A program made the translations under genes and the position numbers. This document shows positions 2,422 to 15,860 of a DNA stretch of 64,000 nt, in pieces; positions within the stretch are counted from its first letter, which is position 1, and each line of letters starts with the position of its first letter. Location of the stretch: the NCBI GenBank assembly GCA_964420555.1, contig CAYQTT010000019.1, forward strand, positions 19,154-83,153, written 5' to 3'. This stretch comes from an uncultured Lentimicrobiaceae bacterium. GTDB taxonomy: Bacteria > Bacteroidota > Bacteroidia > Bacteroidales > UBA4417. Under the pieces are notes generated by a model. That model ran no database searches and was not told the origin of the DNA. It saw only the letters and a program-made list of their open reading frames with translations.

Positions 2422-3042
2422 TTACTTTATCAGCTTCAATCCACTCAGAGCTGAATTGTCGTTTGGACGAAGAATAAGTGCCTGATTAAATAAAACCCTT
2501 GCATCTGCTGATTTGCCTGTATTCAGTTTCGACCATGCCAGCATTATCACCGAATCGTAGTCTAAAGGATAAAGATTTACTACTTTTTCGAAAAGCTTTA
2601 TTGCACTTACATAGTCCTTGCGGTTATAGTAAATTACGCCTAACCAGTAATTAGCAATGGTATTCTGCGGATCAATTTTCAGAATCTCCATATAATGCGT
2701 TTTTACTTTATCCCAGCTTTCGATGGCACTTAGCGGCTTAACGGCGCCAAAGCGGGCTTCGATGGCATACGGTTTCAGCGCGATGGATTTATCGTAATAT
2801 TTTATTGATTCAGTGTATTGCTTTGCGAGGTAATAAAGCCATCCAAGGCGGATGTTAATAATGTAACTATCAGCTTTGTATATCGTTTTCATCGAATTGA
2901 TAGCAGCTGTGTAATTGCCTGATTTCTCCGATTCGAAGCTTTTCACAAAAGTGGCTTGCATAACTGACGCAGTTTGTGCCATAAGGGAACCAAACACAAA
3001 AGTTAAAGTTACTGTAAGCAGAATTCTTTTTAAAGTTTCCAT
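2422..3042 (-). CDS. secreted TPR-repeat protein
   Basis: Signal peptide METLKRILLTVTLTFVFGSLMAQ. TPR-like helical repeats (YYNRKDYVSAIKLFEKVVNLYP, ARVLFNQALILRPND). AGGAGG (3049..3054, minus) lies 6 nt upstream of the ATG. The start overlaps the stop of 3030..4172 by 13 nt. Confidence 0.7.
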   Translation of the reverse strand: METLKRILLTVTLTFVFGSLMAQTASVMQATFVKSFESEKSGNYTAAINSMKTIYKADSYIINIRLGWLYYLAKQYTESIKYYDKSIALKPYAIEARFGAVKPLSAIESWDKVKTHYMEILKIDPQNTIANYWLGVIYYNRKDYVSAIKLFEKVVNLYPLDYDSVIMLAWSKLNTGKSADARVLFNQALILRPNDNSALSGLKLIK

Positions 3043-4172
3043 ATAATTCCTCCTAAAAATGATTGCTGAATGTATTGATCAGTGGTTTGTTCTACTTGTT
3101 TATTATCATACAGGTAATTGCTGTACAACGTGAGACTTTTGTTTATATTCCAGTACACTGACAAACCTGTCCGGAACAATGTAGGATCAATCGAGTTGTA
3201 AATGTATAAGGCGTTGTGATCGTTATAGTTCTGGATATTTCCCAAAGTAACTAATCCTTCGAGCCATACTGTTTTAAAAATACGGGCTCCTGCATATTGG
3301 GCAAATATCAGCCGGCTCGAATCTTTTTCAATCAATCCGCTCAAATACGAAGTAAGATAAAAATTTGCTTTCCCCGGTAAAACAATTCCGGCATGAATCC
3401 CGACTTGCTTAAAGTCGCCAATATCATACCTGAAAAATGATCCGTTCAACCCTAATGATACCCTGTTTAAGCGGGTTGCGAGTGACGAAAACACAAGATT
3501 TCCGGGGTATTTATATCCATCGAGGCTCGTATTCAGATGATGGTATGCTACCGAAAAAGAGGTATGTGATGTTACCGACCAGTTAAGCAGCGCAAAGTAA
3601 TCGGGTTGCTTAACCAAGATCGAATTTACAGTTTGCTTGTAGTTTGAAGCTGATTGATATAGCGACAGCCTGTAACCCACCTGCGAATATATGCCACCAC
3701 GAAAATAAGACGGATTGGTCCGGTTTTCGCCGTTATTGACTTTATAATTATACTCAAGGTCGACAGATGCTACCGGATTGACTTTATGAATCCGCAACCG
3801 GGTTTTCGCCTCTTCAGGCAGCTTGCCTGCATGAAAACGGGCATAGGCAATGTTGCCGGTATTCAAGCCACAATAGTATAGATATTCACGTGTATCGGTA
3901 TCGTATTCGTCAAATTCCAAAGCTTTTTCGTATTGTTCCTGCGAAGCATAATAATCAGCTTTTACAAAATAGGCATATCCCATTCGCTGACGCAGTCTTT
4001 TAAAATCAATATTTTGAGCTATTGACCGTTCAGCTGTTGCAAACAACTGATCCCAATTACCTGAAAGATAGCAGTTGTATGTAATACTGTCAACTGACTC
4101 ATAAGTAATTGAATCCTGAGCCTTTACCCCTACCGAAAACAAAATCAAAATGAAAATTATTAATTTATGCAT
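3030..4172 (-). CDS. signal-peptide protein with TPR-like N-terminus and beta-rich C-terminus (possible OM barrel)
   Basis: Signal peptide MHKLIIFILILFSVGVKAQ. TPR-like segment YYASQEQYEKALEFDEYD, then about 250 aa of short alternating strands. No family recognised. It has 13-nt overlaps with both neighbouring genes. Confidence 0.55.
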   Translation of the reverse strand: MHKLIIFILILFSVGVKAQDSITYESVDSITYNCYLSGNWDQLFATAERSIAQNIDFKRLRQRMGYAYFVKADYYASQEQYEKALEFDEYDTDTREYLYYCGLNTGNIAYARFHAGKLPEEAKTRLRIHKVNPVASVDLEYNYKVNNGENRTNPSYFRGGIYSQVGYRLSLYQSASNYKQTVNSILVKQPDYFALLNWSVTSHTSFSVAYHHLNTSLDGYKYPGNLVFSSLATRLNRVSLGLNGSFFRYDIGDFKQVGIHAGIVLPGKANFYLTSYLSGLIEKDSSRLIFAQYAGARIFKTVWLEGLVTLGNIQNYNDHNALYIYNSIDPTLFRTGLSVYWNINKSLTLYSNYLYDNKQVEQTTDQYIQQSFLGGIIWKL

Positions 4173-6367
4173 ACTGCCTTTATTTTTATTTCGGATGATT
4201 CAAATACGAATTCCTGTACACGGTTATCGCTCAGGGTTATAATACTGTTGCTTTCGATGCGGTTTTTCCTGAATACTGAAACCTGAATCCCGGATTTCAA
4301 TACCAATAAACCTGTATCGAACATATTATCGCCGGATTCAACTTTTATTGAGTATCCCGCACGAATATAGTTATAAAAAGGAGCAACAAAATCGTGTATC
4401 CAGATGCTTGTTTTTTTATTCCTGATTACGTTAAGCGGCATGGCATCGCGCAAAACAATTGATTCGGGATTACCCAAAAACACCTTGTAAACCGACAGGT
4501 AAAAATAATACAGCAATGATTTTTTATTCCCATAGAAGGCCGTAAAGTAAAACATGGAGCCGTCGTTCACATAATAAGCACTCGATTCGGTCTCCTTGCA
4601 ATACAGGTATTTATTGTTGTATGCGTCCGTGTAAGCAATCCATTGTTCAGTTACATTCACACCTTTTTCATTGGTGAAAGAGTATTTCAGACTTGTGTCG
4701 GGCATTATGTCAAAGGCTGATTTAAGGAGCGAATTGCCTGTAATTCCTGAAACCAGATCGCCTTCGGCCGGTTTTGAAAACTGCTGCAATTCAAGCCCTG
4801 ATTTTCCCTTCTGCTGGTAGTAAGCAAACGGATAGTCGATGGTGCGGGCTCCAACCAGCGGAGTTACCTGTACCTGAAAATGAAGGTGTGGCTCCGGCGA
4901 ACGGCCTGAATTGCCGCATAAGGCCAGCAAATCGCCTTTTTGAACAAAATCGCCTTTCGCTACTTTAAACGTTCCCTTTTTGAGGTGCGACATTTGCGTA
5001 TAAAGCCCCGGCAGATGACGAATTACAATTGTATTTCCCCAATTGTTTGATGTGTCAACTTTACCAATTTCGTTATCATCAACATTATCGATAATTTCTT
5101 CAACAATACCATCGGCAGGTGCAAGCACAGGTTTGTTATAGCAATAGTAATTCTCGCAAAGTAACCCCTTCGACTTATAGGTCTTCTGATTTTCATCTTT
5201 AATCATAAAATCGAATGCTTTTCCCCAGTCACCTTTATGCGTATGCTCGCCATCATGTCCTTGCGTGACTGTCCATTCGCCCCAGAAAGGCAGATAAAAC
5301 GGGAAATACAGGAAATGTGACAACCTCTCCTTGTTGTTATTAAATGTGTAAAGATTGATTTCGGGCGAATTGTACTGAATGGGTGTGAGAATCAGTTTTG
5401 ATGGTGTTACCCTTAAACGGAGAAAATAAACAAACAGTATTACCACGAATGAGAATGGCAGCGAGAAAACCGGTAGCTGAATGAAACCGAATAATTTACT
5501 TAAAAACAGCAATACCAGCGATGTAAGCGGCACTAACAGAACCGCCCACCAGTAGGAAAAGCGCGAAGGAATAAGAAAGAATCCGCCAACGGCAAGGGCT
5601 ACCATAATATAGTTTGCTCCAATGTTATAGTAAGTAATACTGGCAGCTTCCGATCCTGAAAACTGTGCAAACATATATGCCGAAAGAAACCCAAGAACAG
5701 ATAACGAAAATGCAATCCGCGAACTTAGCAATACAACAACAGATATTATGATCCCAGCAATCAGGTTATTCTGAAAAAAAATGGAGCTCATCGACCGGAG
5801 ATAAATATCCAGCATCTTATGAATTGGCAGCGAATCGATAGTTTGTAAAAATGAAAGCATCGAATTGCCGCCTATCGCGTATACTTCGTTGATCCAGTAT
5901 ATGTTGCGTTGTGTTAGTCCCAGGTTTTCGAATTGCGACGAAGGCAGTACCACAAACCAGAAAGAAATCACAAAAGGCAGGCTGAGGAACGGCAACCCGC
6001 TCTTCCCAAGCCATCCACCAAGAGTTACAGAAAGAATCAGCGTCAATAATGCAGCAATTAACAGCAAACTAAAAAAAACGAAACCGGGATCAAAAAATGT
6101 TCCCATGCCCATACCCGTCAGCAATGCATTGAAACTAAAAATTCCGTTTTTCAGCTGCAATTTATCCAACCCCATTGTATTGGCAATGAGTACCGTTACC
6201 AACACCGCAATTAATCCACTCAAGCCTGCATAAAAGTTCAAAAAAGTAATCAGGAGAATAATGGCTGCCAGCCATTTGTTGCTGAAAAAGAAAATCGCGG
6301 AATAACTGTTCAGTGTGGCTGGCAGAATTGTGTTGCGAAAAGTGTCGACAAAACGATGAAAGAGCAT
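4160..6367 (-). CDS. urea-transporter-like polytopic membrane domain fused to an M23 metallopeptidase domain
   Basis: The N-terminal ~330 aa has about 10 hydrophobic helices with a UT-family look (FFFSNKWLAAIILLITFLNFYAGLSGLIAVL). The central region has M23 signatures (GNTIVIRH..YTQMSHL..GDFVQKGDLLALCGNSGRSPEPHLHFQV). The C-terminal ~220 aa is unassigned. Confidence 0.75.
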   Translation of the reverse strand: MLFHRFVDTFRNTILPATLNSYSAIFFFSNKWLAAIILLITFLNFYAGLSGLIAVLVTVLIANTMGLDKLQLKNGIFSFNALLTGMGMGTFFDPGFVFFSLLLIAALLTLILSVTLGGWLGKSGLPFLSLPFVISFWFVVLPSSQFENLGLTQRNIYWINEVYAIGGNSMLSFLQTIDSLPIHKMLDIYLRSMSSIFFQNNLIAGIIISVVVLLSSRIAFSLSVLGFLSAYMFAQFSGSEAASITYYNIGANYIMVALAVGGFFLIPSRFSYWWAVLLVPLTSLVLLFLSKLFGFIQLPVFSLPFSFVVILFVYFLRLRVTPSKLILTPIQYNSPEINLYTFNNNKERLSHFLYFPFYLPFWGEWTVTQGHDGEHTHKGDWGKAFDFMIKDENQKTYKSKGLLCENYYCYNKPVLAPADGIVEEIIDNVDDNEIGKVDTSNNWGNTIVIRHLPGLYTQMSHLKKGTFKVAKGDFVQKGDLLALCGNSGRSPEPHLHFQVQVTPLVGARTIDYPFAYYQQKGKSGLELQQFSKPAEGDLVSGITGNSLLKSAFDIMPDTSLKYSFTNEKGVNVTEQWIAYTDAYNNKYLYCKETESSAYYVNDGSMFYFTAFYGNKKSLLYYFYLSVYKVFLGNPESIVLRDAMPLNVIRNKKTSIWIHDFVAPFYNYIRAGYSIKVESGDNMFDTGLLVLKSGIQVSVFRKNRIESNSIITLSDNRVQEFVFESSEIKIKAVCIN

Positions 6368-6516: not shown

Positions 6517-6747
6517 TCACAGTCTATATTTATTAAAGATCTCTTTTCTGGTTGGGCAAGTACAAATAGATGAATTCCCGAAAGACATTTTATAATTGCA
6601 GAATGACTTGCCTACGTATTTCACAAAAAGAACTTTTTTATTGATGCAATTCTCAACGTTGCAATAAACATGGCTATCACTATTCAGACAATCAAAATCT
6701 CTGGGACAATTCCATGTTACTGAGATTGTTTTCTTATCTATTTCCAT
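6517..6747 (-). CDS. small cysteine-rich hypothetical protein (76 aa, 7 Cys)
   Basis: ATG-initiated ORF on the same strand as its neighbours. Cys pattern C-x5-C-x8-C-x4-C-x15-C-x11-C-x-C-P. The DNA is visibly more AT-rich than flanking genes. No family recognised, so coding status is uncertain. Confidence 0.4.
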   Translation of the reverse strand: MEIDKKTISVTWNCPRDFDCLNSDSHVYCNVENCINKKVLFVKYVGKSFCNYKMSFGNSSICTCPTRKEIFNKYRL

Positions 6748-6849: not shown

Positions 6850-8220
6850 TTATTTGGTCTGATCCAGCCTCAAATACTCCGGAATCTGCTCATTTGAAAG
6901 CATTGTTTCGAGGGTCTCGGCTTTGCGGATCACATGCGTTTTGTTTTCGTTATCAATTAAAACGATGTTGGGCCTCAAGGTAATAAACTGCATCCATTGT
7001 GTCATATTGTATGCTCCAACTTTATGCACAACCACATTATTTCCTTTTTCGAGCAGTGGCATGGTGATGCTTTCGCGAATTACATCAATATTCATGCAAA
7101 GCGGGCCATATAGCACCATTTCTTCGGTATGCTGTCCAAAGGACTGTGTAGTGCTGATCTGGTGATCGTACCAAAATGCTGTAAAAAGGGTATTCACTCC
7201 AAAATCGAGAACAGTAGCCCGCCGTCCATCCGAAAGACGTTTAGTAGCCAGAACCGTGCCAAGTAAAAAACCTGCATCGTCAATAAGCACCCGACCCGAT
7301 TCAAGAATCAGCAGTGGCAGGTCTTCCTGCTTAAACCCATACCCAAGAATTACATCTGTAATAGCATCGGCAAACTGATCGACCGAAGGAATAGTATCAG
7401 AACCCGGCAGGTACGCTCCTTTTAATGTATTGGTCGAAGGGAAACCTCCGCCCAGATCGATATACTGCAATACTTTTTTGAATTTTTCTTTAACACTCCA
7501 TGTCAATTCACAGAGTTTGGTTGCCGCTGTCGCATAAGCTGAGGGCGAGAGCATAAATGTGCCGATGTGGCAATGCAGTCCTACCAGGTCGAGATTTTCG
7601 GAATTAATAATGCGGGAGATGGCTGTCCAGGCCTGTCCGTTTTCAAAATTAAATCCAAACCTATCCCATTTGGGGTAAATGCCGGTATCCATATTCACAC
7701 GGATAGCAACCCTGGGTTTCAGATTATTTTCTTCGCTGAGTTTGATCAGCGAGTAGAGTTCGTCGAAATGATCGATATGGATCAGCGAATTGTTGCGGGC
7801 AGCAGTAATAAGCTGTTCGTCGGTTTTATCGGGACCATTAAAAATGATTTTATTCCCGGGAACGCCATTTCCCAGCGCTTTTTCGTACTCAAAACCCGAC
7901 ACCACCTCGGCCCAGGAGCCTTCCTGGTGAAAAATGCGGCAAACGGCATCAAGGTAATTGGTTTTATACGACCAGGCAAACTGAACTTTTGGATAACGCG
8001 TTTTGAATATTCGAGTTGCATTCTGATAATTGCGCCTTATCTGTTTCTCAGATAACACAAATAACGGGGAACCGAATTCATCAATCAGGCTTTTTACCGG
8101 CACACTTTCGATGTGTGTTACCGGAATATTTTCAGTGCGGGTACCGAATTTATTCATGAGCCCTGTGCTCATTTTTTTAATAATCGGTCTTTCATATCTT
8201 AGTTTTTCCATGGTATTCAT
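6850..8220 (-). CDS. PLP-dependent amino-acid decarboxylase, Orn/DAP/Arg decarboxylase (fold type III) family
   Basis: Family motifs: FAWSYKTNY (PLP lysine context), GLHCHIGT, IDLGGGFP, ESGRVLIDDAG, GPLCMNIDV. Alternative start at Met4 (8211). The substrate cannot be assigned from sequence. Confidence 0.85.
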   Translation of the reverse strand: MNTMEKLRYERPIIKKMSTGLMNKFGTRTENIPVTHIESVPVKSLIDEFGSPLFVLSEKQIRRNYQNATRIFKTRYPKVQFAWSYKTNYLDAVCRIFHQEGSWAEVVSGFEYEKALGNGVPGNKIIFNGPDKTDEQLITAARNNSLIHIDHFDELYSLIKLSEENNLKPRVAIRVNMDTGIYPKWDRFGFNFENGQAWTAISRIINSENLDLVGLHCHIGTFMLSPSAYATAATKLCELTWSVKEKFKKVLQYIDLGGGFPSTNTLKGAYLPGSDTIPSVDQFADAITDVILGYGFKQEDLPLLILESGRVLIDDAGFLLGTVLATKRLSDGRRATVLDFGVNTLFTAFWYDHQISTTQSFGQHTEEMVLYGPLCMNIDVIRESITMPLLEKGNNVVVHKVGAYNMTQWMQFITLRPNIVLIDNENKTHVIRKAETLETMLSNEQIPEYLRLDQTK

Positions 8221-8246
8221 TGTTAGTATATTTCATTTACTTCAAT

Positions 8247-8254
8247 CAAAATTA
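8247..8254 (-). promoter_or_regulatory. -7 promoter box for the decarboxylase gene
   Basis: The minus strand reads TAATTTTG, 27 nt upstream of the ATG at 8220 and just downstream of the heptamer array. Confidence 0.45.
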
Positions 8255-8301
8255 TATCCGTGCTTTAGAAACCAAAACGGTTATTGCGATCGAAGCGACA
8301 A

Positions 8302-8378
8302 CACTTTTCACTATTCACTTTTCACTATTCACTATTCACTATTCACTTTTCACTTTTCACTTTTCCCTTTTCACTTTC
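8302..8378. repeat. tandem heptamer array (CACTWTT) x11
   Basis: Eleven head-to-tail 7-nt units (CACTTTT/CACTATT, one CCCTTTT). It starts at the ATP-grasp stop codon and ends about 50 nt upstream of the decarboxylase promoter box. Confidence 0.9.
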
Positions 8379-9453
8379 ACAGCTCACCGGTCCCAGAAAT
8401 TTTCTGAAATTCGCTGACATCGGTAATCAAATCCCAGGCGTAGCGTATAAACATTTTACCCACTTCGTATTCGCTGTAAGGTTCCACCTTTTGTCCCATT
8501 GCCATTTTAACCAGTGATGCCGGCTGGTTTTGACCTGCTGCTGCTGTTAAATAAATCCAGGCAGGAAACCGGGGATTGACTTCCATAATATAAGGCTTCC
8601 CATCATCCGACTGCATAATTTCAAGTTCACATCCACCCCGCCATTTGGTAACTTCTATAAATTTACGGGCAAGTTCAACAAACGACGAATCGTCGATTGT
8701 AATTCCCGACCATGCTTTCCCTTTATCTGTGATATAGAGTTTTCGCATGGGGATCACACTTATTGCATTTCCTTCGCCATCGCCTAAAGCGGCAACATTA
8801 ATTTCGGTGCCTTTAATAAATTCCTGAACTATAATCGGCAATCCCCATTTAGCCTGAATTTTGTAAAATGCTTTTTCAGCCTGCTCAAGCGTATTTACAA
8901 TAATAGCGTCATAAAATTTGCCTTTAACAACCATAGGGTACCCCATTTTTTCGGCTGTTGCTTTCATATCCTTTACATCATGCATGATTTTATCCTCAGG
9001 CACCATTAACCCGTGCTTTTTACCGAACTCGAATAATTTCACTTTATCACGGGCCTCAAACTGTTCAAGATCGGGAAGGAAGGAGCGAATCCCAACTTTT
9101 GCCAGCTTGTCTCTCAGTTTTATAAAATTGAAAAGTTCAGCATCAAAATTCGGGATTACCAGATCAATTTTTTCACGATCGTGGATGTACATCAGCCGGC
9201 CCATCAACGCATCAGTTCCGGCTGAAGGATAAGGAATCTGGTAGGTTTTATCAACAACATCGTGCATATACGAACCCGGTTCGAGCGATTCGTAGGAAAG
9301 GCCTATAATCCTTACTTTAAAATCGCTGCATTCGCGGATAGCGCGTATTACAGCTACACCAGGGCCCGGGCTGTCAATGGCATTTAAACCGGTAACGGCA
9401 ATTACTATTTGCTTTTGGGAGATATGGTTTCTGTTTTCGGCCTGGTCGTTCAT
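8377..9453 (-). CDS. ATP-grasp carboxylate-amine ligase family protein
   Basis: ATP-grasp signatures MVVKGKFYDA, IIVQEFIKGTE, IMEVNPRFPAWIYL. The pre-ATP-grasp N-domain has IVIAVTGLNA. The substrate is unknown. Confidence 0.8.
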   Translation of the reverse strand: MNDQAENRNHISQKQIVIAVTGLNAIDSPGPGVAVIRAIRECSDFKVRIIGLSYESLEPGSYMHDVVDKTYQIPYPSAGTDALMGRLMYIHDREKIDLVIPNFDAELFNFIKLRDKLAKVGIRSFLPDLEQFEARDKVKLFEFGKKHGLMVPEDKIMHDVKDMKATAEKMGYPMVVKGKFYDAIIVNTLEQAEKAFYKIQAKWGLPIIVQEFIKGTEINVAALGDGEGNAISVIPMRKLYITDKGKAWSGITIDDSSFVELARKFIEVTKWRGGCELEIMQSDDGKPYIMEVNPRFPAWIYLTAAAGQNQPASLVKMAMGQKVEPYSEYEVGKMFIRYAWDLITDVSEFQKISGTGEL

Positions 9454-9502
9454 GATTATAAATAATTGCAGTTAGAGTAAATGAGTTATTCTTTTATTGA
9501 AA

Positions 9503-10303
9503 TTATTTTCTCACTGAAAGTTTGTATGTTTCTGATTTAAATTCGCCAGCTTCAATCCTGTAAAAATACATTCCGTCAGCCAGATCGTTGGTTTGAACCA
9601 CTATATTATCGAACGTATGATCTACAACATATAACTTCACCAAATTACCGCTTACATTATACACTTTTAATTCAGCCTGATTTACATTAAACGGCAGGTT
9701 GTATGGTATTGTAACAGTATTGGAAGTCGGGTTTGGAAACGCATTTCGTAACGAAAACCGTTTGCCGGCCGGAAAGTCATTAATGCTTGTTGCTGTTTGC
9801 CCGGGAATCGAATACACTTTTGTGTTAACTTTTTCAGGGAAAACAGAAAAATCATATTCCCATACAAGAAGTTTAGAACCGGTTTGAGCAGGATAAATAA
9901 GAGAATAACCCCCACCTGGAATTGTTTGAAGGATTGTTCCCGATTCGCTTGCAATGCGTGTATCATACGTATAATAAGCCAGCGAGGAATTGTAGATACA
10001 GGACACATAAAGCAGTTCAATAGAGTTATCAGTATTAAACAGGTTTTCGCTTACAAACTGAATATCACAGAGATAATAATTGGCTGGAATGCTCAGATTT
10101 ATCGTTTTCCATAAGGTATGATCGTTATTATACAACTTGCACTGGCTGTTTGGTACGTCCATAACATAGTATTTATAGCCAGCAACAGGCAGATTAACAT
10201 AAGCAGCCGACACTCCTGTATAGGTATGCTCTGGAATTATCTGGCTTTTTAAACCATTAGCTACAGCCACTAAAAAGATGAGAATAAATGCGATTTGTTT
10301 CAT
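9503..10303 (-). CDS. secreted protein with T9SS C-terminal sorting domain
   Basis: Signal peptide MKQIAFILIFLVAVANGLKSQ. C-terminal ~80 aa of the type-A Por sorting pattern (FPNPTSNTVTIPY...LKVYNVSGNLV...LADGMYFYRIEAG...KLSVRK). Confidence 0.75.
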   Translation of the reverse strand: MKQIAFILIFLVAVANGLKSQIIPEHTYTGVSAAYVNLPVAGYKYYVMDVPNSQCKLYNNDHTLWKTINLSIPANYYLCDIQFVSENLFNTDNSIELLYVSCIYNSSLAYYTYDTRIASESGTILQTIPGGGYSLIYPAQTGSKLLVWEYDFSVFPEKVNTKVYSIPGQTATSINDFPAGKRFSLRNAFPNPTSNTVTIPYNLPFNVNQAELKVYNVSGNLVKLYVVDHTFDNIVVQTNDLADGMYFYRIEAGEFKSETYKLSVRK

Positions 10304-10384
10304 AAAAATTGACTTTTGTTTTGGTTCAGTTAGTCTATGGTTTATTAGTTTTTGTGAGTTAGTTTTCTGGATTTAGGCAATCAG

Positions 10385-10624
10385 TTATTCGAAAATTGCA
10401 GCTTCTTTAAGTTGCGCTACAAAATCATCGAGATCCTTTTCGAACTGGTGTTTATCCACATCATACTTTAAGCAGATCGTATCAATAATTTCATGCAAAA
10501 GTTTTTCAGCCTTGAGCAGTGAAATCACTTCTGTACCGATTGAATTTGTTGTGAAGGAATCTCCTGTACCCGGATTAAAAACAAATCCTTCTTCGCTGGT
10601 GGCAATATTTTTTCTGAGTTTCAT
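10385..10624 (-). CDS. PqqD-family (RRE-like) small protein
   Basis: FVFNPGTGDSFTTNSIGTEVISLL...DLDDFVAQLKEAAIFE matches the PqqD/peptide-chaperone pattern. I prefer the ATG at 10624; the ORF-track start at 10681 is a TTG. Confidence 0.65.
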   Translation of the reverse strand: MKLRKNIATSEEGFVFNPGTGDSFTTNSIGTEVISLLKAEKLLHEIIDTICLKYDVDKHQFEKDLDDFVAQLKEAAIFE

Positions 10625-10694
10625 TGTGATGAATTTGTATCTGGTTTCTGGTAAAAAGTAATTTATTCTTTCTTCTTTCAATTTAAACTTTAAG

Positions 10695-10702
10695 CAAAGA
10701 TA
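10695..10702 (-). promoter_or_regulatory. -7 promoter box heading the PqqD/T9SS/ATP-grasp gene string
   Basis: The minus strand reads TATCTTTG, 71 nt upstream of the ATG at 10624 (14 nt from the TTG at 10681). Confidence 0.45.
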
Positions 10703-11484
10703 AAGTGGCTATTTGCTCATTAAAAGTGAATTCAGCATAACCCCTCCTCCTTTAAGTAGAAAGCATAAATGAACAGGTGAACACTTCGAAAAAAAAATTT
10801 TTACTTATAGCACCAAATACTCATTTTTCTTCGTAACTTTAATAGGTTATAAGTTCCTTAAAGATAAAACTTGATTAATACCATTTTAGCGTTGAAAATT
10901 TGTATATAAACTAACCTATCTGTGCATAAGAACTTGGAAAACTTGTACTAAGCATTTGCAAATTCGGGTAATCTTTCAAATTGTAATTACTACTCCCATG
11001 AAAAGATATCCAGAAAATGGCTGCATAAGTGAAACGTTGTCCTGGCAAAGCTCAAAACTTACCTTCCTGATTCTTATGTGCCAATGTCAGATTGCACCCA
11101 AACTAAATCAAAAGTTTCATACTTCTCTGGTTATATTTATTCACACTGATATCATTCCTGATCCCAACCAGGCATCATTCTTTGTTTATACAAAATCCAT
11201 ACATAGGTATATTATAATTCTCCCTGTTCACAGGGCTATCCATATCTTCCCTCATTTACTTCATAAAAATTCTGGCAAGTTCTCATGCTCGCTTTTTCTC
11301 AGGCAATTAACCAACCGAAATATCCAACAATTCGGATGGCAAAAGCCATTTCACTATTTCTTCTCTATCTATACTGTTGAATGCATTACTAAAAAATTAT
11401 CCAATCTCAAACAAACATCAAAGCTGTCGTATGATGGCCTACTGTTTGCATTAATTAATCATTAATTTACTAATTCTTTTAAAA

Positions 11485-14020: not shown

Positions 14021-14740
14021 CTAGACCAGGAATGTTTTATCCACAAACTCCTGAAATTTCTCTTTATACTGTTCGCCTACAGGGATATAAACAATATGAT
14101 CGAAAACAATCCTGTTTCGTTCAATCACTTTTATACGATCAAGATTGACGATAAATGAACGGTGCACGCGCATAAATTTTTCCTTCGGCAATTGCTCCTC
14201 CATCGCTTTAAGCCTAATAAGCGTTGTAACGGGCTCATCATTAATCAGATGAATCTGAATATATTCGTTAGCGCTTTCGATATATTTGATTTCGGATAAG
14301 AAAATACGAACCATTTTGTATTCTGATTTTACAAAAAGGCTGTCCTGGGTAGTTTGAACGGATTCCTGCTGTTTTTGATTTAACCTGAACCAGGTTTTAG
14401 CCTTGTTGGCGGACTTCAGAAATACTGTGTAACTGATCGGTTTAAGTAAATAATCAAGCGCATCAACCTGAAAACCTTCGATAGCATATTCGCTGTATGC
14501 GGTGGTAAAAATGATCTGCGGCTTTTGCGTCAGCGATTTTACAAAATCCAGTCCGTTAAGGTCGGGCATGTTAATATCCACAAACATAAGGTCCACCTCG
14601 TTGTTTGCAAGAAATTCGATGGCATCGAAAGCACTACGGCAAAGCGCAACCGCTTCCAGAAACGGAGTTTTTTCGATATACGCGATTATTTGCTTCAGAG
14701 CCAGTGGCTCATCGTCAATTGCCAGGCATTTTATTGTCAT
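14021..14740 (-). CDS. LytTR-family response regulator
   Basis: Receiver domain (CLAIDDEPLAL, LMFVDINMPDLNG, KP) plus C-terminal LytTR domain (IKYIESANEYIQIHL...FMRVHRSFIVNLDRI). Confidence 0.9.
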   Translation of the reverse strand: MTIKCLAIDDEPLALKQIIAYIEKTPFLEAVALCRSAFDAIEFLANNEVDLMFVDINMPDLNGLDFVKSLTQKPQIIFTTAYSEYAIEGFQVDALDYLLKPISYTVFLKSANKAKTWFRLNQKQQESVQTTQDSLFVKSEYKMVRIFLSEIKYIESANEYIQIHLINDEPVTTLIRLKAMEEQLPKEKFMRVHRSFIVNLDRIKVIERNRIVFDHIVYIPVGEQYKEKFQEFVDKTFLV

Positions 14741-15860
14741 AAACAGGTATGGTTAACTGTACTTCATATTCTTTTTCGCTCTCATGAATATCGAGCGAAT
14801 AGTCGTTCCCGAATAGCAGTTCGAGGCTTTTTTTAATATTTGCCAAACCAATGCCTGAATATTCTTTTTCACTGGTTTCCTTCGCTTTGAAACGACTGTT
14901 GCGGATAACACAATTCAATTTCCCATTCTTTTGTTCCAGTTTAAACAGAACAAACGATTCCTTCTGGTAACTTACACCATGTTTAAACGCATTTTCGAGG
15001 AACGAAATAAAAAGCATAGGCGGAATCGGGATATCACGGATTTCATCAGGAAGCGTCAGCATAACAGTCACATTTTCGGGGAACCGCAATTTCATTAACG
15101 TGATATAACTTTCGATAAAAGCTATCTCCTTTTTCAATGTCGTTTGTCCGTGTGCAGTATCGTAGAGCAGGTAGCGCATCATGGTCGACAACTGAATGAT
15201 CGTATTTTTAGCATCTTCGGCATTAATATCGATAAGCGCGTGAATGTTGTTAAGCGTATTCATAAAAAAATGGGGGCTCACCTGATGTCTCAGAAGGGCC
15301 AGCTGAGTTTTCAGCTGTACTTTTTCAAGGTCTTTGCGCTTATTCTCCTCGTTGAGCCATTGCGAAACCATTTTAAAAGATGTACTAATTCCTACTACAA
15401 GAACTGCAATAATAAAATTATCAAGAAACAGCATGAACATCGATTTCTGCTCAGGCTGAGCTACTGGCTGATAACCCATTGGCGGCGGCATTCCCGGACC
15501 TAATTCCATTGGTGGCATTCCAGGCCCCAGTTCCATGGGTGGCATTGACATTGGCTGTCCCGGAGCTAGCAGCATCCTGATAGTTATTGTTAAACTAACC
15601 ACAGCGATAGTAGTAAACAAAGCAGACAGAATATAGGAGCGGTATTTTTTTTGAAATAAAAAATGTGGAACTAAAACCAACGTATTAAGCAGAAACAAAA
15701 CTAAAAAGGATGACATCCTGATCCATTCGCCATAAACTTTATCCCAGTTTACCGTATTATCAATGCGGTGAAAAAAGAATGGCAAGGCAAACACAGCCGT
15801 CCAGATAACAACAAACACTATTATTTCGATGATCCGGATATTGAGTATTTTTTCTCTCAT
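14715..15860 (-). CDS. LytS/His_kinase-type sensor histidine kinase
   Basis: N-terminal TM helices. HQVSPHFFMNTLNNIHALI (PF06580-type H box). C-terminal ATPase region. Overlaps the regulator gene by 26 nt. Contains the tandem Pro-rich duplication PMELGPGMPPMELGPGMPPP. Confidence 0.85.
   Translation of the reverse strand: MREKILNIRIIEIIVFVVIWTAVFALPFFFHRIDNTVNWDKVYGEWIRMSSFLVLFLLNTLVLVPHFLFQKKYRSYILSALFTTIAVVSLTITIRMLLAPGQPMSMPPMELGPGMPPMELGPGMPPPMGYQPVAQPEQKSMFMLFLDNFIIAVLVVGISTSFKMVSQWLNEENKRKDLEKVQLKTQLALLRHQVSPHFFMNTLNNIHALIDINAEDAKNTIIQLSTMMRYLLYDTAHGQTTLKKEIAFIESYITLMKLRFPENVTVMLTLPDEIRDIPIPPMLFISFLENAFKHGVSYQKESFVLFKLEQKNGKLNCVIRNSRFKAKETSEKEYSGIGLANIKKSLELLFGNDYSLDIHESEKEYEVQLTIPVYDNKMPGN

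Follow-up and report, generated by a model that had tools for sequence, protein, structure and literature searches.

An orphan ligase-decarboxylase cassette with a PqqD-like candidate peptide reader

An ATP-grasp ligase, a PLP decarboxylase and a small PqqD-like protein form the cytoplasmic core of a widely conserved six-gene system for which our literature search found no description. We believe this system probably joins an amino acid to a partner, removes its carboxyl group and hands the product to a membrane channel, although this is inferred from sequence and predicted structure alone. The PqqD-like protein looks like a docking adaptor rather than a carrier. The genes were examined in a window of 64,000 nucleotides from an uncultured Lentimicrobiaceae bacterium (GCA_964420555.1, contig CAYQTT010000019.1, positions 19,154 to 83,153), and all positions below refer to this window. 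An earlier note had pointed out the two enzymes, the PqqD protein and a T9SS cargo gene lying among them, and had drawn an analogy to butirosin biosynthesis, where BtrJ loads glutamate onto the carrier BtrI and BtrK decarboxylates the tethered residue. What the note observed is correct. Its interpretation is only partly supported: the ligase and decarboxylase are a real, tightly linked functional unit and the logic of ligation followed by decarboxylation fits, but PqqD as the carrier does not, and the triad is only half of the cassette.

The cassette and its distribution

All four genes lie on the minus strand where the note placed them. Pfam identifies the ORF at 10385-10681 as PqqD (3e-12), with a likely ATG start at 10624 that gives 79 aa, although the ORF could extend to the TTG at 10681. 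The gene at 9503-10303 carries a Por_Secre_tail (9.5e-12), the ligase at 8377-9453 matches ATP-grasp_3 (3e-12) and ATPgrasp_Ter (9e-12), and the decarboxylase at 6850-8220 matches Orn_Arg_deC_N (4.9e-30) and Orn_DAP_Arg_deC (3e-12). The note had found only peptides of 14 aa or fewer on the minus strand between 10682 and 10960. We find no ORF of 20 aa or more wholly inside that stretch, but one 45-aa ORF with a TTG start (10911-11048) overlaps it.

The adjacency of these genes is far beyond chance. In 401 sampled Bacteroidota genomes, orthologues of the ligase and the decarboxylase occur in exactly the same 31 and are always adjacent, while PqqD is present in 30 of these 31 and in 0 of the other 370. 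The distribution is patchy, covering 24 of 180 genera. The full gene order is PqqD-like protein, ATP-grasp ligase, PLP decarboxylase, urea-transporter-like (UT) channel fused to an M23 peptidase, TPR/beta-barrel protein, and periplasmic TPR protein. This order is kept in 80 loci from Bacteroidales, Chitinophagaceae, Hymenobacter and Crocinitomicaceae, with tight or overlapping spacing. The T9SS cargo protein (signal peptide plus a sorting domain found by both Pfam and NCBIfam) is not part of the core. It is a lineage-specific insertion found between PqqD and the ligase in about 12 of the 80 loci (L001-L008, L014, L020, L022 and L040 in our numbering), and elsewhere PqqD and the ligase are 1-116 nt apart in most loci.

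What is new here is that the cassette extends to Methylomirabilota and Nitrospinota in altered form. There it keeps PqqD and a tailed decarboxylase and has two ATP-grasp modules, but its channel is fused to a sirtuin (UT::SIR2) in place of M23. Other phyla also hold a PqqD::ATP-grasp fusion (protein P0200) and ATP-grasp::decarboxylase fusions (proteins P0177 and P0330). It is important to realize that these fusions are single metagenomic representatives from high-GC DNA and could be read-through artefacts.

The decarboxylase and the ligase

The decarboxylase is an AR-fold (group IV) enzyme related to FigC and LysA, but it is not LysA. Its likely true start is the ATG at 8211 (MEKLRYERP...). 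Among solved structures it is nearest FigC (213 bits), ahead of the LysA enzyme MjLysA (156) and BtrK (80). Against NCBIfam it scores 230 bits for FslC (cut-off 500) and 221 bits for LysA (cut-off 297.9). The catalytic residues are invariant in orthologues: the SYK PLP lysine, HCHIGT, GGGF, ESGR, the catalytic Cys and GAYN. Its C-M-N-I-D motif has Met where LysA and ODC have the Asp that binds a free side-chain amine, as FigC does at M355. The DAP-binding Arg of DAPDC and the citrate-binding H357, R387 and N389 of FigC are replaced by W, I, Q and M. The earlier note had conceded that its reading would fail if the decarboxylase grouped tightly with bona fide LysA and the linkage was absent from other genomes. 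Neither holds, since the enzyme scores below the LysA cut-off, the tree places the cassette enzymes apart from the LysA group, a true LysA is encoded elsewhere in the genome, and the linkage is near-perfect.

The ligase (358 aa) is an ATP-grasp carboxylate-amine ligase in a family of its own. It falls below every NCBIfam cut-off, but orthologues of 60-96% identity are present in 80 loci and its E-x-N-P-R motif is invariant among them. A fold search with its AF2 model (pLDDT 82) gave only generic hits, to biotin carboxylases, 2pn1 and RizA, which point to no substrate class.

The PqqD-like protein and the decarboxylase tail

A profile built from orthologues of the PqqD-like protein (10385-10624) hits the lasso-peptide B1 leader-binding proteins best, TbiB1 at 1.7e-11 and TfuB1 at 3.8e-8, against 0.0026 for PqqD proper. 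These are its closest solved relatives. It is the only PqqD-like gene in this genome.

The decarboxylase begins with a leader-like tail of 27 aa (8131-8211, minus strand), MEKLRYERPIIKKMSTGLMNKFGTRTE, with the pattern YxxPxI...GxxNKFG. Y6, P9, G17, N20 and K21 are invariant, and I11, K13, F22 and G23 are 90% or more conserved. The tail is as conserved as the catalytic core, yet it is predicted to be disordered, with an AF2 pLDDT below 50 and no secondary structure. Both motifs occur in 78 of 78 Bacteroidota loci, and the composite motif is unique in the genome. Y-x-x-P-x-I has the spacing of the lasso leader motif Y(-17)xxP(-14)xL(-12) needed for B1 binding (PMC10368454). Tail-less relatives (loci L100 and L101) lack the cassette ligase and PqqD within about 9 kb. 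However, not every observation fits this pairing. In one genome (G089) the cassette has a good tail but no adjacent PqqD, and a PqqD-like gene lies on another contig instead. In loci L092 and L093 the Pro of the motif is shifted by one position (YEPMxL), and the R/S and E/S changes in tail and PqqD do not covary cleanly.

The envelope genes

The channel gene (4160-6367, minus strand) matches Pfam UT (2.2e-51) and M23 (2.4e-16) and ends in a C-terminal domain of about 220 aa. About 10 TM segments end near residue 316 and are followed by RLR. The motifs NWGNxIxIxH, SHL and PHLHF are conserved, as is an atypical THKGxWxxAxDF, and the gene is present in every sufficiently long locus. The placement of M23 in the cytoplasm rests only on the known UT topology plus hydropathy. 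Next is a secreted protein (3030-4172, minus strand) with a signal peptide, a TPR-like N-domain and a probable outer-membrane beta-barrel. It has no Pfam hit, its C-terminus ..GG(I/L)xWK(L/F/I) is conserved, and it overlaps both neighbours by about 10 nt in most loci. The last gene of the cassette in nearly all loci encodes a periplasmic TPR protein of 206 aa with a signal peptide (2422-3042, minus strand), which matches TPR families.

A proposed mechanism

We believe the triad is the cytoplasmic half of a trans-envelope cassette, and we consider the following scheme about as likely as not. The ATP-grasp enzyme would form an amide that leaves an alpha-amino-acid end free. The decarboxylase would then remove the alpha-carboxylate of that conjugate, as FigC, SbnH, BtrK, CtaF and MccE do; ligation of an amino acid through its side chain followed by decarboxylation is the best-fitting chemistry. 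The PqqD protein, in this view a peptide reader of the lasso B1 type, most likely docks on the disordered tail of the decarboxylase and so couples decarboxylase and ligase. The amide-cleaving domain on the inner face of the channel, M23 here and a sirtuin in other phyla, would unmask or release the amine/amide product at the pore, and the outer-membrane barrel and TPR proteins would pass it outwards. The analysis itself shows the linkage, the fold of the decarboxylase, its intact catalytic residues and its FigC-like pocket. The substrate, the product, the ligation, the docking of PqqD on the tail, the amide cleavage and the export are all inferred. A further difficulty is that a narrow urea-type pore may not pass anything larger than a small amide.

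Alternative explanations

A true RiPP or scaffold-peptide pathway with an unlinked, very small precursor is possible but unlikely. In this view PqqD binds a separately encoded peptide, the ligase adds a diamino acid to it through the side-chain amine, the decarboxylase trims it, and M23 cuts the product off, following the logic of pearlin and fosfazinomycin biosynthesis. PqqD-type RREs normally bind precursor peptides, overlooked short scaffold peptides have been found in known clusters (PMC13622209), MccE shows that an AR-fold decarboxylase can act on a modified peptide, and the cassette does contain a peptidase domain. However, the spacers inside the cassette are too short for a conserved ORF (medians 38, 90 and 87 nt, with overlaps of 10 nt), and no small ORF family is shared between Bacteroidales-type and Chitinophagales-type loci within 500-700 nt of the cassette. 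In this genome the only sequence with the B1-type composite motif is the decarboxylase tail.

Slightly less likely is that the tail is itself the carrier the earlier note was looking for. PqqD would present the tail to the ligase, which would load an acidic amino acid through its side-chain carboxylate onto the epsilon-amine of K21. The decarboxylase would act on the tethered residue, probably in trans within the dimer, and the channel-fused M23 or sirtuin would cleave the N-epsilon-acyl-lysine bond to release the product. The G-x-x-[NST]-K motif with its Lys is kept in Bacteroidota (78 of 78 loci plus 4 divergent) and in 6 of 7 loci from two other phyla. The domain fused to the channel in other phyla is a full sirtuin (SIR2 1e-34 to 1e-40), an enzyme class whose known substrates are N-epsilon-acyl-lysines in peptides, and M23 enzymes also cut amides at side-chain amines. 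The two ATP-grasp modules recall the iterative loading by BtrJ and CtaD (PMC11350588), the decarboxylase pocket is hydrophobic where FigC binds citrate, and the PqqD::ATP-grasp fusion fits an RRE that serves the ligase. Against this, locus L099 and the fusion protein P0177 lack the Lys, sirtuin deacylation gives O-acyl-ADP-ribose rather than a free acid, and an enzyme acting as its own carrier is unprecedented. The geometry is conjectural, and the model offers no clear reason why such a product would need a urea-type channel.

Cell-envelope remodelling seems more doubtful still. M23 would act as a murein endopeptidase and the two enzymes would alter a DAP- or Lys-type residue in peptidoglycan stem peptides or another envelope polymer. 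M23 does match murein endopeptidase models weakly (MepM, ShyA, Pgp3), the TPR and barrel proteins resemble envelope and export parts, and the decarboxylase is a LysA relative. However, M23 follows an even-numbered UT-type TM bundle and is most likely cytoplasmic, it is replaced in other phyla by a sirtuin, which needs cytoplasmic NAD+, the DAP-binding Arg is missing, and the cassette is patchy.

The literal reading of the note, PqqD as a BtrI-like carrier, has in its favor the same two enzyme classes as BtrJ and BtrK with a small co-conserved protein, but it is very unlikely, since the fold is PqqD/wHTH and not ACP, the only invariant residues are M1, A8, G13, F14, F16, P18, G21, N27 and D64 (no Ser, Cys or Lys; Ser23 of 'GDS' varies), the C-terminus varies in length and residue with no conserved acid, no phosphopantetheinyl transferase is in the cassette, and the closest structures are leader-binding B1 proteins.

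Comparison with known systems

The closest known chemistry is that of FigA/FigC (FslA/FslC) in Francisella rhizoferrin biosynthesis, together with SbnH and AcsE. There an amide or ester ligase is followed by an AR-fold PLP decarboxylase acting on an amino acid already conjugated through its side chain; FigC decarboxylates an N-acylated ornithine, and both it and the enzyme here have Met next to the catalytic Cys. The ligase here is an ATP-grasp enzyme and not an NIS synthetase, the citrate-binding residues are replaced by hydrophobic or neutral ones, and no siderophore transporter is present. The cassette also adds a PqqD protein, a UT channel with peptidase, and outer-membrane parts.

In BtrI/BtrJ/BtrK (butirosin), CtaE/CtaD/CtaF (closthioamide) and FlvL/FlvN/FlvO, an ATP-dependent ligase is paired with an AR-fold PLP decarboxylase acting on a side-chain-tethered Glu or Asp, with iterative loading (PMC11350588), which the two-module ligases of other phyla recall. 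Here there is no ACP, no phosphopantetheine site and no thioester chemistry, BtrK is a more distant relative than FigC, and the small protein is an RRE. The lasso-peptide machinery (B1 RRE, B2 protease, C cyclase) shares the B1-like protein, the spacing of the leader motif, a protease domain and an ATP-dependent amide-forming enzyme. However, no precursor gene, no transglutaminase-type B2 and no Asn-synthetase-type cyclase are present, the 'leader' sits on a 450-aa enzyme, and the NCBIfam lasso_PqqD scores (30.6 and 26.9) are far below their cut-offs of 70 and 80.

In microcin C maturation, MccD and the N-terminal domain of MccE, an AR-fold PLP decarboxylase works on an amino-acid moiety appended to a ribosomal peptide derivative. 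The appended group there comes from SAM and not from an ATP-grasp ligation, there is no RRE, and the context is an antibiotic operon. The same fusion of a urea-transporter domain with a C-terminal M23 peptidase in bacteria is noted in a survey of urea transporters (PMC12998343), which records only the domain combination, without operon, partners or function.

Neighbouring and sporadic features

A 76-aa ORF with seven Cys (6517-6747, minus strand) is a lineage-specific insertion and not core; it has no Pfam or NCBIfam hit, and a homologue was detected only in loci L006 and L042 of 80. Tandem Repeats Finder reports 10.9 copies of CACTTTT (score 117) in the ligase-decarboxylase spacer at 8302-8377, but this is not a conserved feature of the cassette, as the spacer is 7-1175 nt long in other loci. 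Upstream, at 14021-15860 on the minus strand, lie a LytS-type histidine kinase (Pfam His_kinase 3.8e-23) and a LytTR response regulator (Response_reg plus LytTR). This candidate regulator pair is found upstream and co-oriented in many Bacteroidales-type loci but not in Chitinophagaceae-type loci.

Gene content of the locus

The minus strand carries a co-directional run of genes. It begins with a PqqD-like gene (ORF 10385-10681, with a likely start at the ATG at 10624, giving 79 aa), followed by a T9SS cargo gene (9503-10303), an ATP-grasp ligase (8377-9453) and an Orn/DAP/Arg-type PLP decarboxylase (6850-8220). Next come a 76-aa ORF with seven cysteines (6517-6747), a 735-aa fusion of a urea-transporter (UT) domain with an M23 peptidase (4160-6367), a 380-aa secreted protein with no Pfam match (3030-4172), and a 206-aa TPR protein (2422-3042). 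The Pfam and NCBIfam assignments agree with the families named in the earlier note, so its observation holds. The catalytic motifs of the ligase (E-x-N-P-R) and of the decarboxylase (SYK, HCHIGT, GGGF, ESGR, the catalytic Cys and GAYN) are invariant among orthologues. The earlier note had also scanned the stretch upstream of PqqD (10682-10960) for short ORFs, and no ORF of 20 aa or more lies wholly within it.

The earlier note compared these genes to the BtrI/BtrJ/BtrK pathway. This interpretation is only partly supported. An ATP-grasp ligase is indeed adjacent to an AR-fold PLP decarboxylase, although BtrK is a much weaker match to the decarboxylase than FigC is. The small acyl carrier protein with an invariant phosphopantetheinylated Ser that the pathway requires is missing; the small protein has a PqqD fold.

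A conserved six-gene cassette

The three genes are part of a larger unit. A scan of one genome per species returned 80 loci with a 60-96% identical ligase, from Bacteroidales, Chitinophagaceae, Hymenobacter and Crocinitomicaceae. Mapping the window's proteins onto these loci shows a fixed order wherever the contig is long enough: PqqD, ATP-grasp, decarboxylase, UT::M23, the 380-aa protein and TPR. The spacers are short, with medians of 38, 90 and 87 nt, and the last three genes overlap by about 10 nt.

Some of what is seen in the window is not core. The T9SS gene sits between PqqD and the ligase only in the window's close relatives, about 12 of 80 loci. A homologue of the Cys-rich ORF, which has no family match, is detectable only in loci L006 and L042 and is absent from the closest relative, locus L001. 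The spacer between the ligase stop and the decarboxylase start is filled by 10.9 tandem copies of the heptamer CACTTTT (8302-8377), but the equivalent spacer ranges from 7 to 1175 nt in other loci, so the array is not a feature of the cassette.

We searched the same sample of 401 Bacteroidota genomes three times. The ligase orthologue is in 31 genomes, from 24 of 180 genera. The decarboxylase orthologue is in exactly the same 31, always adjacent and on the same strand. PqqD is in 30 of these 31 and in none of the other 370. The exception, genome G089, has a PqqD-like gene on another contig beside barrel-like genes. Related genomes are not independent, so we attach no P value to this pattern, but it is nevertheless near-perfect. 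Absence of linkage in other genomes had been set beforehand as grounds for giving up the Btr analogy, and that condition is not fulfilled.

The decarboxylase is not LysA

The decarboxylase scores 220.8 bits on the LysA model (TIGR01048, cut-off 297.9) and 230 bits on the N-citrylornithine decarboxylase FslC/FigC model (NF041039, cut-off 500). It is not the sole or housekeeping copy either, since the same genome encodes a LysA at 386 bits. A further, third LysA-like decarboxylase in this genome (G000 C1:646034-647236, locus L082) scores 263 bits, below the LysA cut-off, and has no leader-like tail. Among solved structures, FigC/FslC (7kh2) is the best match at 213 bits, ahead of M. jannaschii LysA (MjLysA) at 156 and BtrK at 80. 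In a maximum-likelihood tree built from the matched regions, cassette decarboxylases from three phyla lie apart from a LysA group made of the genome's LysA, MjLysA and the C1 paralogue. The supports of that group are 93.7/95, while the position of FigC is unresolved.

Comparing the alignments with the FigC structure paper (PMC7857480) narrows the likely substrate. The Asp next to the catalytic Cys binds a free side-chain amine in ODC, ADC and DAPDC, but in this enzyme it is Met (C-M-N-I-D), as in FigC (M355). The Arg on the specificity helix that binds the distal carboxylate of DAP is absent, the helix reading FTAFWY. The citrate-binding H357, R387 and N389 of FigC are I, Q and M here. So the substrate is most likely an amino acid whose side-chain group is already in an amide, and its distal part would be neutral or hydrophobic rather than citrate.

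The ligase and the PqqD-like protein

The ligase forms its own family. It is below every NCBIfam cut-off and only remotely similar to solved proteins. An AlphaFold model (pLDDT 82) matches biotin carboxylases, the uncharacterised CPS-like protein 2pn1 and the L-amino-acid ligase RizA about equally. This confirms a carboxylate-amine ligase, but the sequence and fold searches returned only generic relatives and give no substrate class.

We considered several identities for the PqqD-like protein. A LysW-like carrier in the LysW/LysX amino-group carrier system would end in a conserved C-terminal Glu ligated by an ATP-grasp enzyme, but the C-termini vary in residue and length (E, D, EQ, ENNL, DLN, EF, GD, NHD and others), which rules this out. 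The Ser of a 'GDS' triplet, Ser23, varies, so there is no ACP-like attachment site, and no other nucleophile is conserved. The only invariant residues are M1, A8, G13, F14, F16, P18, G21, N27 and D64. It is not the PqqD of PQQ biosynthesis, since it scores 19 bits on TIGR03859 (cut-off 46) and no pqqA/B/C/E genes are in the locus. A profile of the family hits the lasso-peptide leader-binding proteins TbiB1 (1.7e-11) and TfuB1 (3.8e-8) far better than PqqD proper (0.0026). These B1 proteins are its closest solved relatives, although its scores are below the NCBIfam lasso_PqqD cut-offs. The rest of a lasso pathway is not among the cassette genes, which include no precursor gene, no B2 transglutaminase-type protease and no C Asn-synthetase-type cyclase. 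In our view the protein resembles a peptide reader rather than a carrier.

A leader-like tail on the decarboxylase

The decarboxylase begins with a 27-residue extension, MEKLRYERPIIKKMSTGLMNKFGTRTE, that LysA and FigC lack. Y6, P9, G17, N20 and K21 are invariant, and I11, K13, F22 and G23 are at least 90% conserved, even in orthologues that are only 46-49% identical overall. Both motifs, of the types Y-x-x-P-x-I and G-x-x-[NST]-K, are present in 78 of 78 Bacteroidota loci with a complete N-terminus. AlphaFold gives residues 1-27 a pLDDT below 50 and no secondary structure while the body is confident, which is the signature of a linear motif that folds on a partner.

Y-x-x-P-x-I has the spacing of the lasso leader motif Y(-17)xxP(-14)xL(-12) needed for B1 binding (PMC10368454). 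If Y6 is placed at lasso-leader position -17, position +1 falls on the conserved G23 of NKFG (residues 6-23, 8143-8196), and lasso cores typically start with Gly. This may be coincidence, since there is no Thr at -2 and no ring acceptor at positions 7-9 of this would-be core, only Glu27 at +5. The composite motif occurs only in this tail in the genome, and the PqqD-like gene is the genome's only one. We looked for a separate precursor upstream of PqqD (700 nt, ATG starts) and on both flanks of the cassette (500 nt, all starts), but found only lineage-restricted shadows of neighbouring genes and no small ORF family shared across lineages. Covariation of R/S at tail position 8 with E/S at PqqD position 12 is inconsistent across lineages.

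Relatives in other phyla

A profile search of 1.8 billion cluster representatives found 296 relatives of the ligase at E below 1e-30. Among the best 150, about 25 are roughly 710-aa proteins with two ATP-grasp modules, one (P0200) is a PqqD::ATP-grasp fusion, and one (P0177) is an ATP-grasp::decarboxylase fusion that keeps YVRPSI. A more distant fusion is P0330. The single fusions come from high-GC metagenomic DNA and could be read-through artefacts, but the two-module ligases are a real family in Rokubacteria/Methylomirabilota, Nitrospinota and Terriglobales. Their loci read: a secreted 450-aa TPR protein, PqqD, two ATP-grasp modules (fused, about 710 aa, or split), a tailed decarboxylase, and a UT domain fused to a complete sirtuin (SIR2, 1e-34 to 1e-40) instead of M23. 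In Methylomirabilota and Nitrospinota this fusion is seen at L092 11541-13229, L093 11541-13256 and L096 9307-10971.

Six cassette loci in Methylomirabilota and one in Nitrospinota carry an aromatic-x-x-P-x-L-type motif, although in two of them the Pro is shifted by one position. All but one keep G-x-x-[NST]-K. Two tail-less decarboxylases, in loci L100 and L101, nest inside the cassette clade, and no cassette-type ligase or PqqD lies within about 9 kb of either. In L101 (9042-13290), the one of the two that we annotated, the neighbours are a different ATP-grasp gene, DUF1464 and DUF6513/pterin-binding-like genes. This is possibly a cofactor (H4MPT-type) biosynthesis cluster that reuses the same ligase-decarboxylase pairing. 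The absence of the tail in these two fits a tail that is tied to the cassette partners.

The membrane half

The UT part has about ten hydrophobic segments ending near residue 316, followed by RLR. Both termini of urea transporters lie inside the cell, so M23 would be cytoplasmic. Its NWGNxIxIxH, SHL and PHLHF motifs are conserved, and the first zinc motif is atypical but also conserved (THKGxWxxAxDF). A cytoplasmic, NAD-dependent sirtuin at the same position in other phyla supports an inner-face, amide-cleaving role. The UT::M23 architecture is mentioned in print only as a domain combination (PMC12998343). The 380-aa protein has a signal peptide and a barrel-type C-terminus.

Interpretation

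We consider the following to be established by this analysis: the genes with their domains and intact catalytic motifs, the near-perfect linkage, the non-LysA identity of the decarboxylase and its FigC-like pocket, the resemblance of PqqD to B1 proteins, the invariant, predicted-disordered, leader-like tail, and the alternative M23 and sirtuin fusions. What these parts do together is our inference. In this view the ligase makes an amide that leaves an alpha-amino-acid end free, and the decarboxylase removes its carboxylate, as FigC, SbnH, BtrK, CtaF and MccE do. PqqD would dock on the tail and couple the two enzymes, and the channel-fused domain would unmask or release the product for export. 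We regard this scheme as about as likely as not, and we say the same of the docking of PqqD on the tail taken alone.

None of the alternatives is likely in our opinion. The one that survives best is a true scaffold-peptide pathway with an unlinked, tiny precursor (compare PMC13622209), although this is doubtful. Nearly as possible, and still unlikely, is that the decarboxylase is its own carrier. A lasso-type reader protein would present the built-in 'leader' tail to the ATP-grasp ligase, which would load an amino acid onto the invariant tail lysine as acyl acceptor, and the enzyme would then decarboxylate its tethered cargo. A channel-fused isopeptidase (M23, or a sirtuin in other phyla) would release the product at a urea-type pore. 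If true, this would be a RiPP-like, protein-templated route to a small molecule in which the carrier is part of a catalytic enzyme. Envelope remodelling is more unlikely again. The literal reading of PqqD as a BtrI-type carrier is very improbable.

The ligate-then-decarboxylate chemistry is already known from other systems. In the literature searched we found no paper describing the cassette, and three things appear to be undescribed: the orphan lasso-type reader, the leader-like tail on an enzyme, and the UT channel fused to an amide-cleaving domain. About 8% of the sampled Bacteroidota genomes carry the cassette. If the docking model holds, it would widen the role of RiPP recognition elements (RREs) from reading precursor peptides to assembling enzyme complexes, and genome-mining tools that treat every orphan RRE as a sign of a RiPP would then mislabel these loci. 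The alternative fusions of a urea-type channel to an M23 peptidase or to a sirtuin point to an undescribed way of unmasking and releasing a metabolite at the membrane. Cultured carriers exist (Hymenobacter sp. 15J16-1T3B, locus L065), so the question is open to direct testing.

Genomic context

The neighbours upstream of the cassette differ by lineage. A GNAT is found in Chitinophagaceae and lumazine synthase in a Crocinitomicaceae genome. In many Bacteroidales-type loci, including the window (14021-15860), a LytS-type histidine kinase and a LytTR response regulator lie upstream and are co-oriented with the cassette, and they are a candidate dedicated regulator. A promoter and terminator scan gave results at or near shuffle expectation and was uninformative. 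A PADLOC search with eight proteins returned no hits to known anti-phage defence systems. T9SS-tail proteins also lie directly upstream of the cassette in two distant Bacteroidota genomes, G089 and G101 (L085 1806-4547 and L087 about 10569-10733), but this may reflect only the abundance of T9SS cargo genes in the phylum. In genome G337, identical copies of the PqqD/ligase/decarboxylase stretch sit at both ends of a 3.74-Mb single contig (C1:2571-5192 and C1:3733987-3736608), which is most likely the overlap of a circular assembly rather than a duplication.
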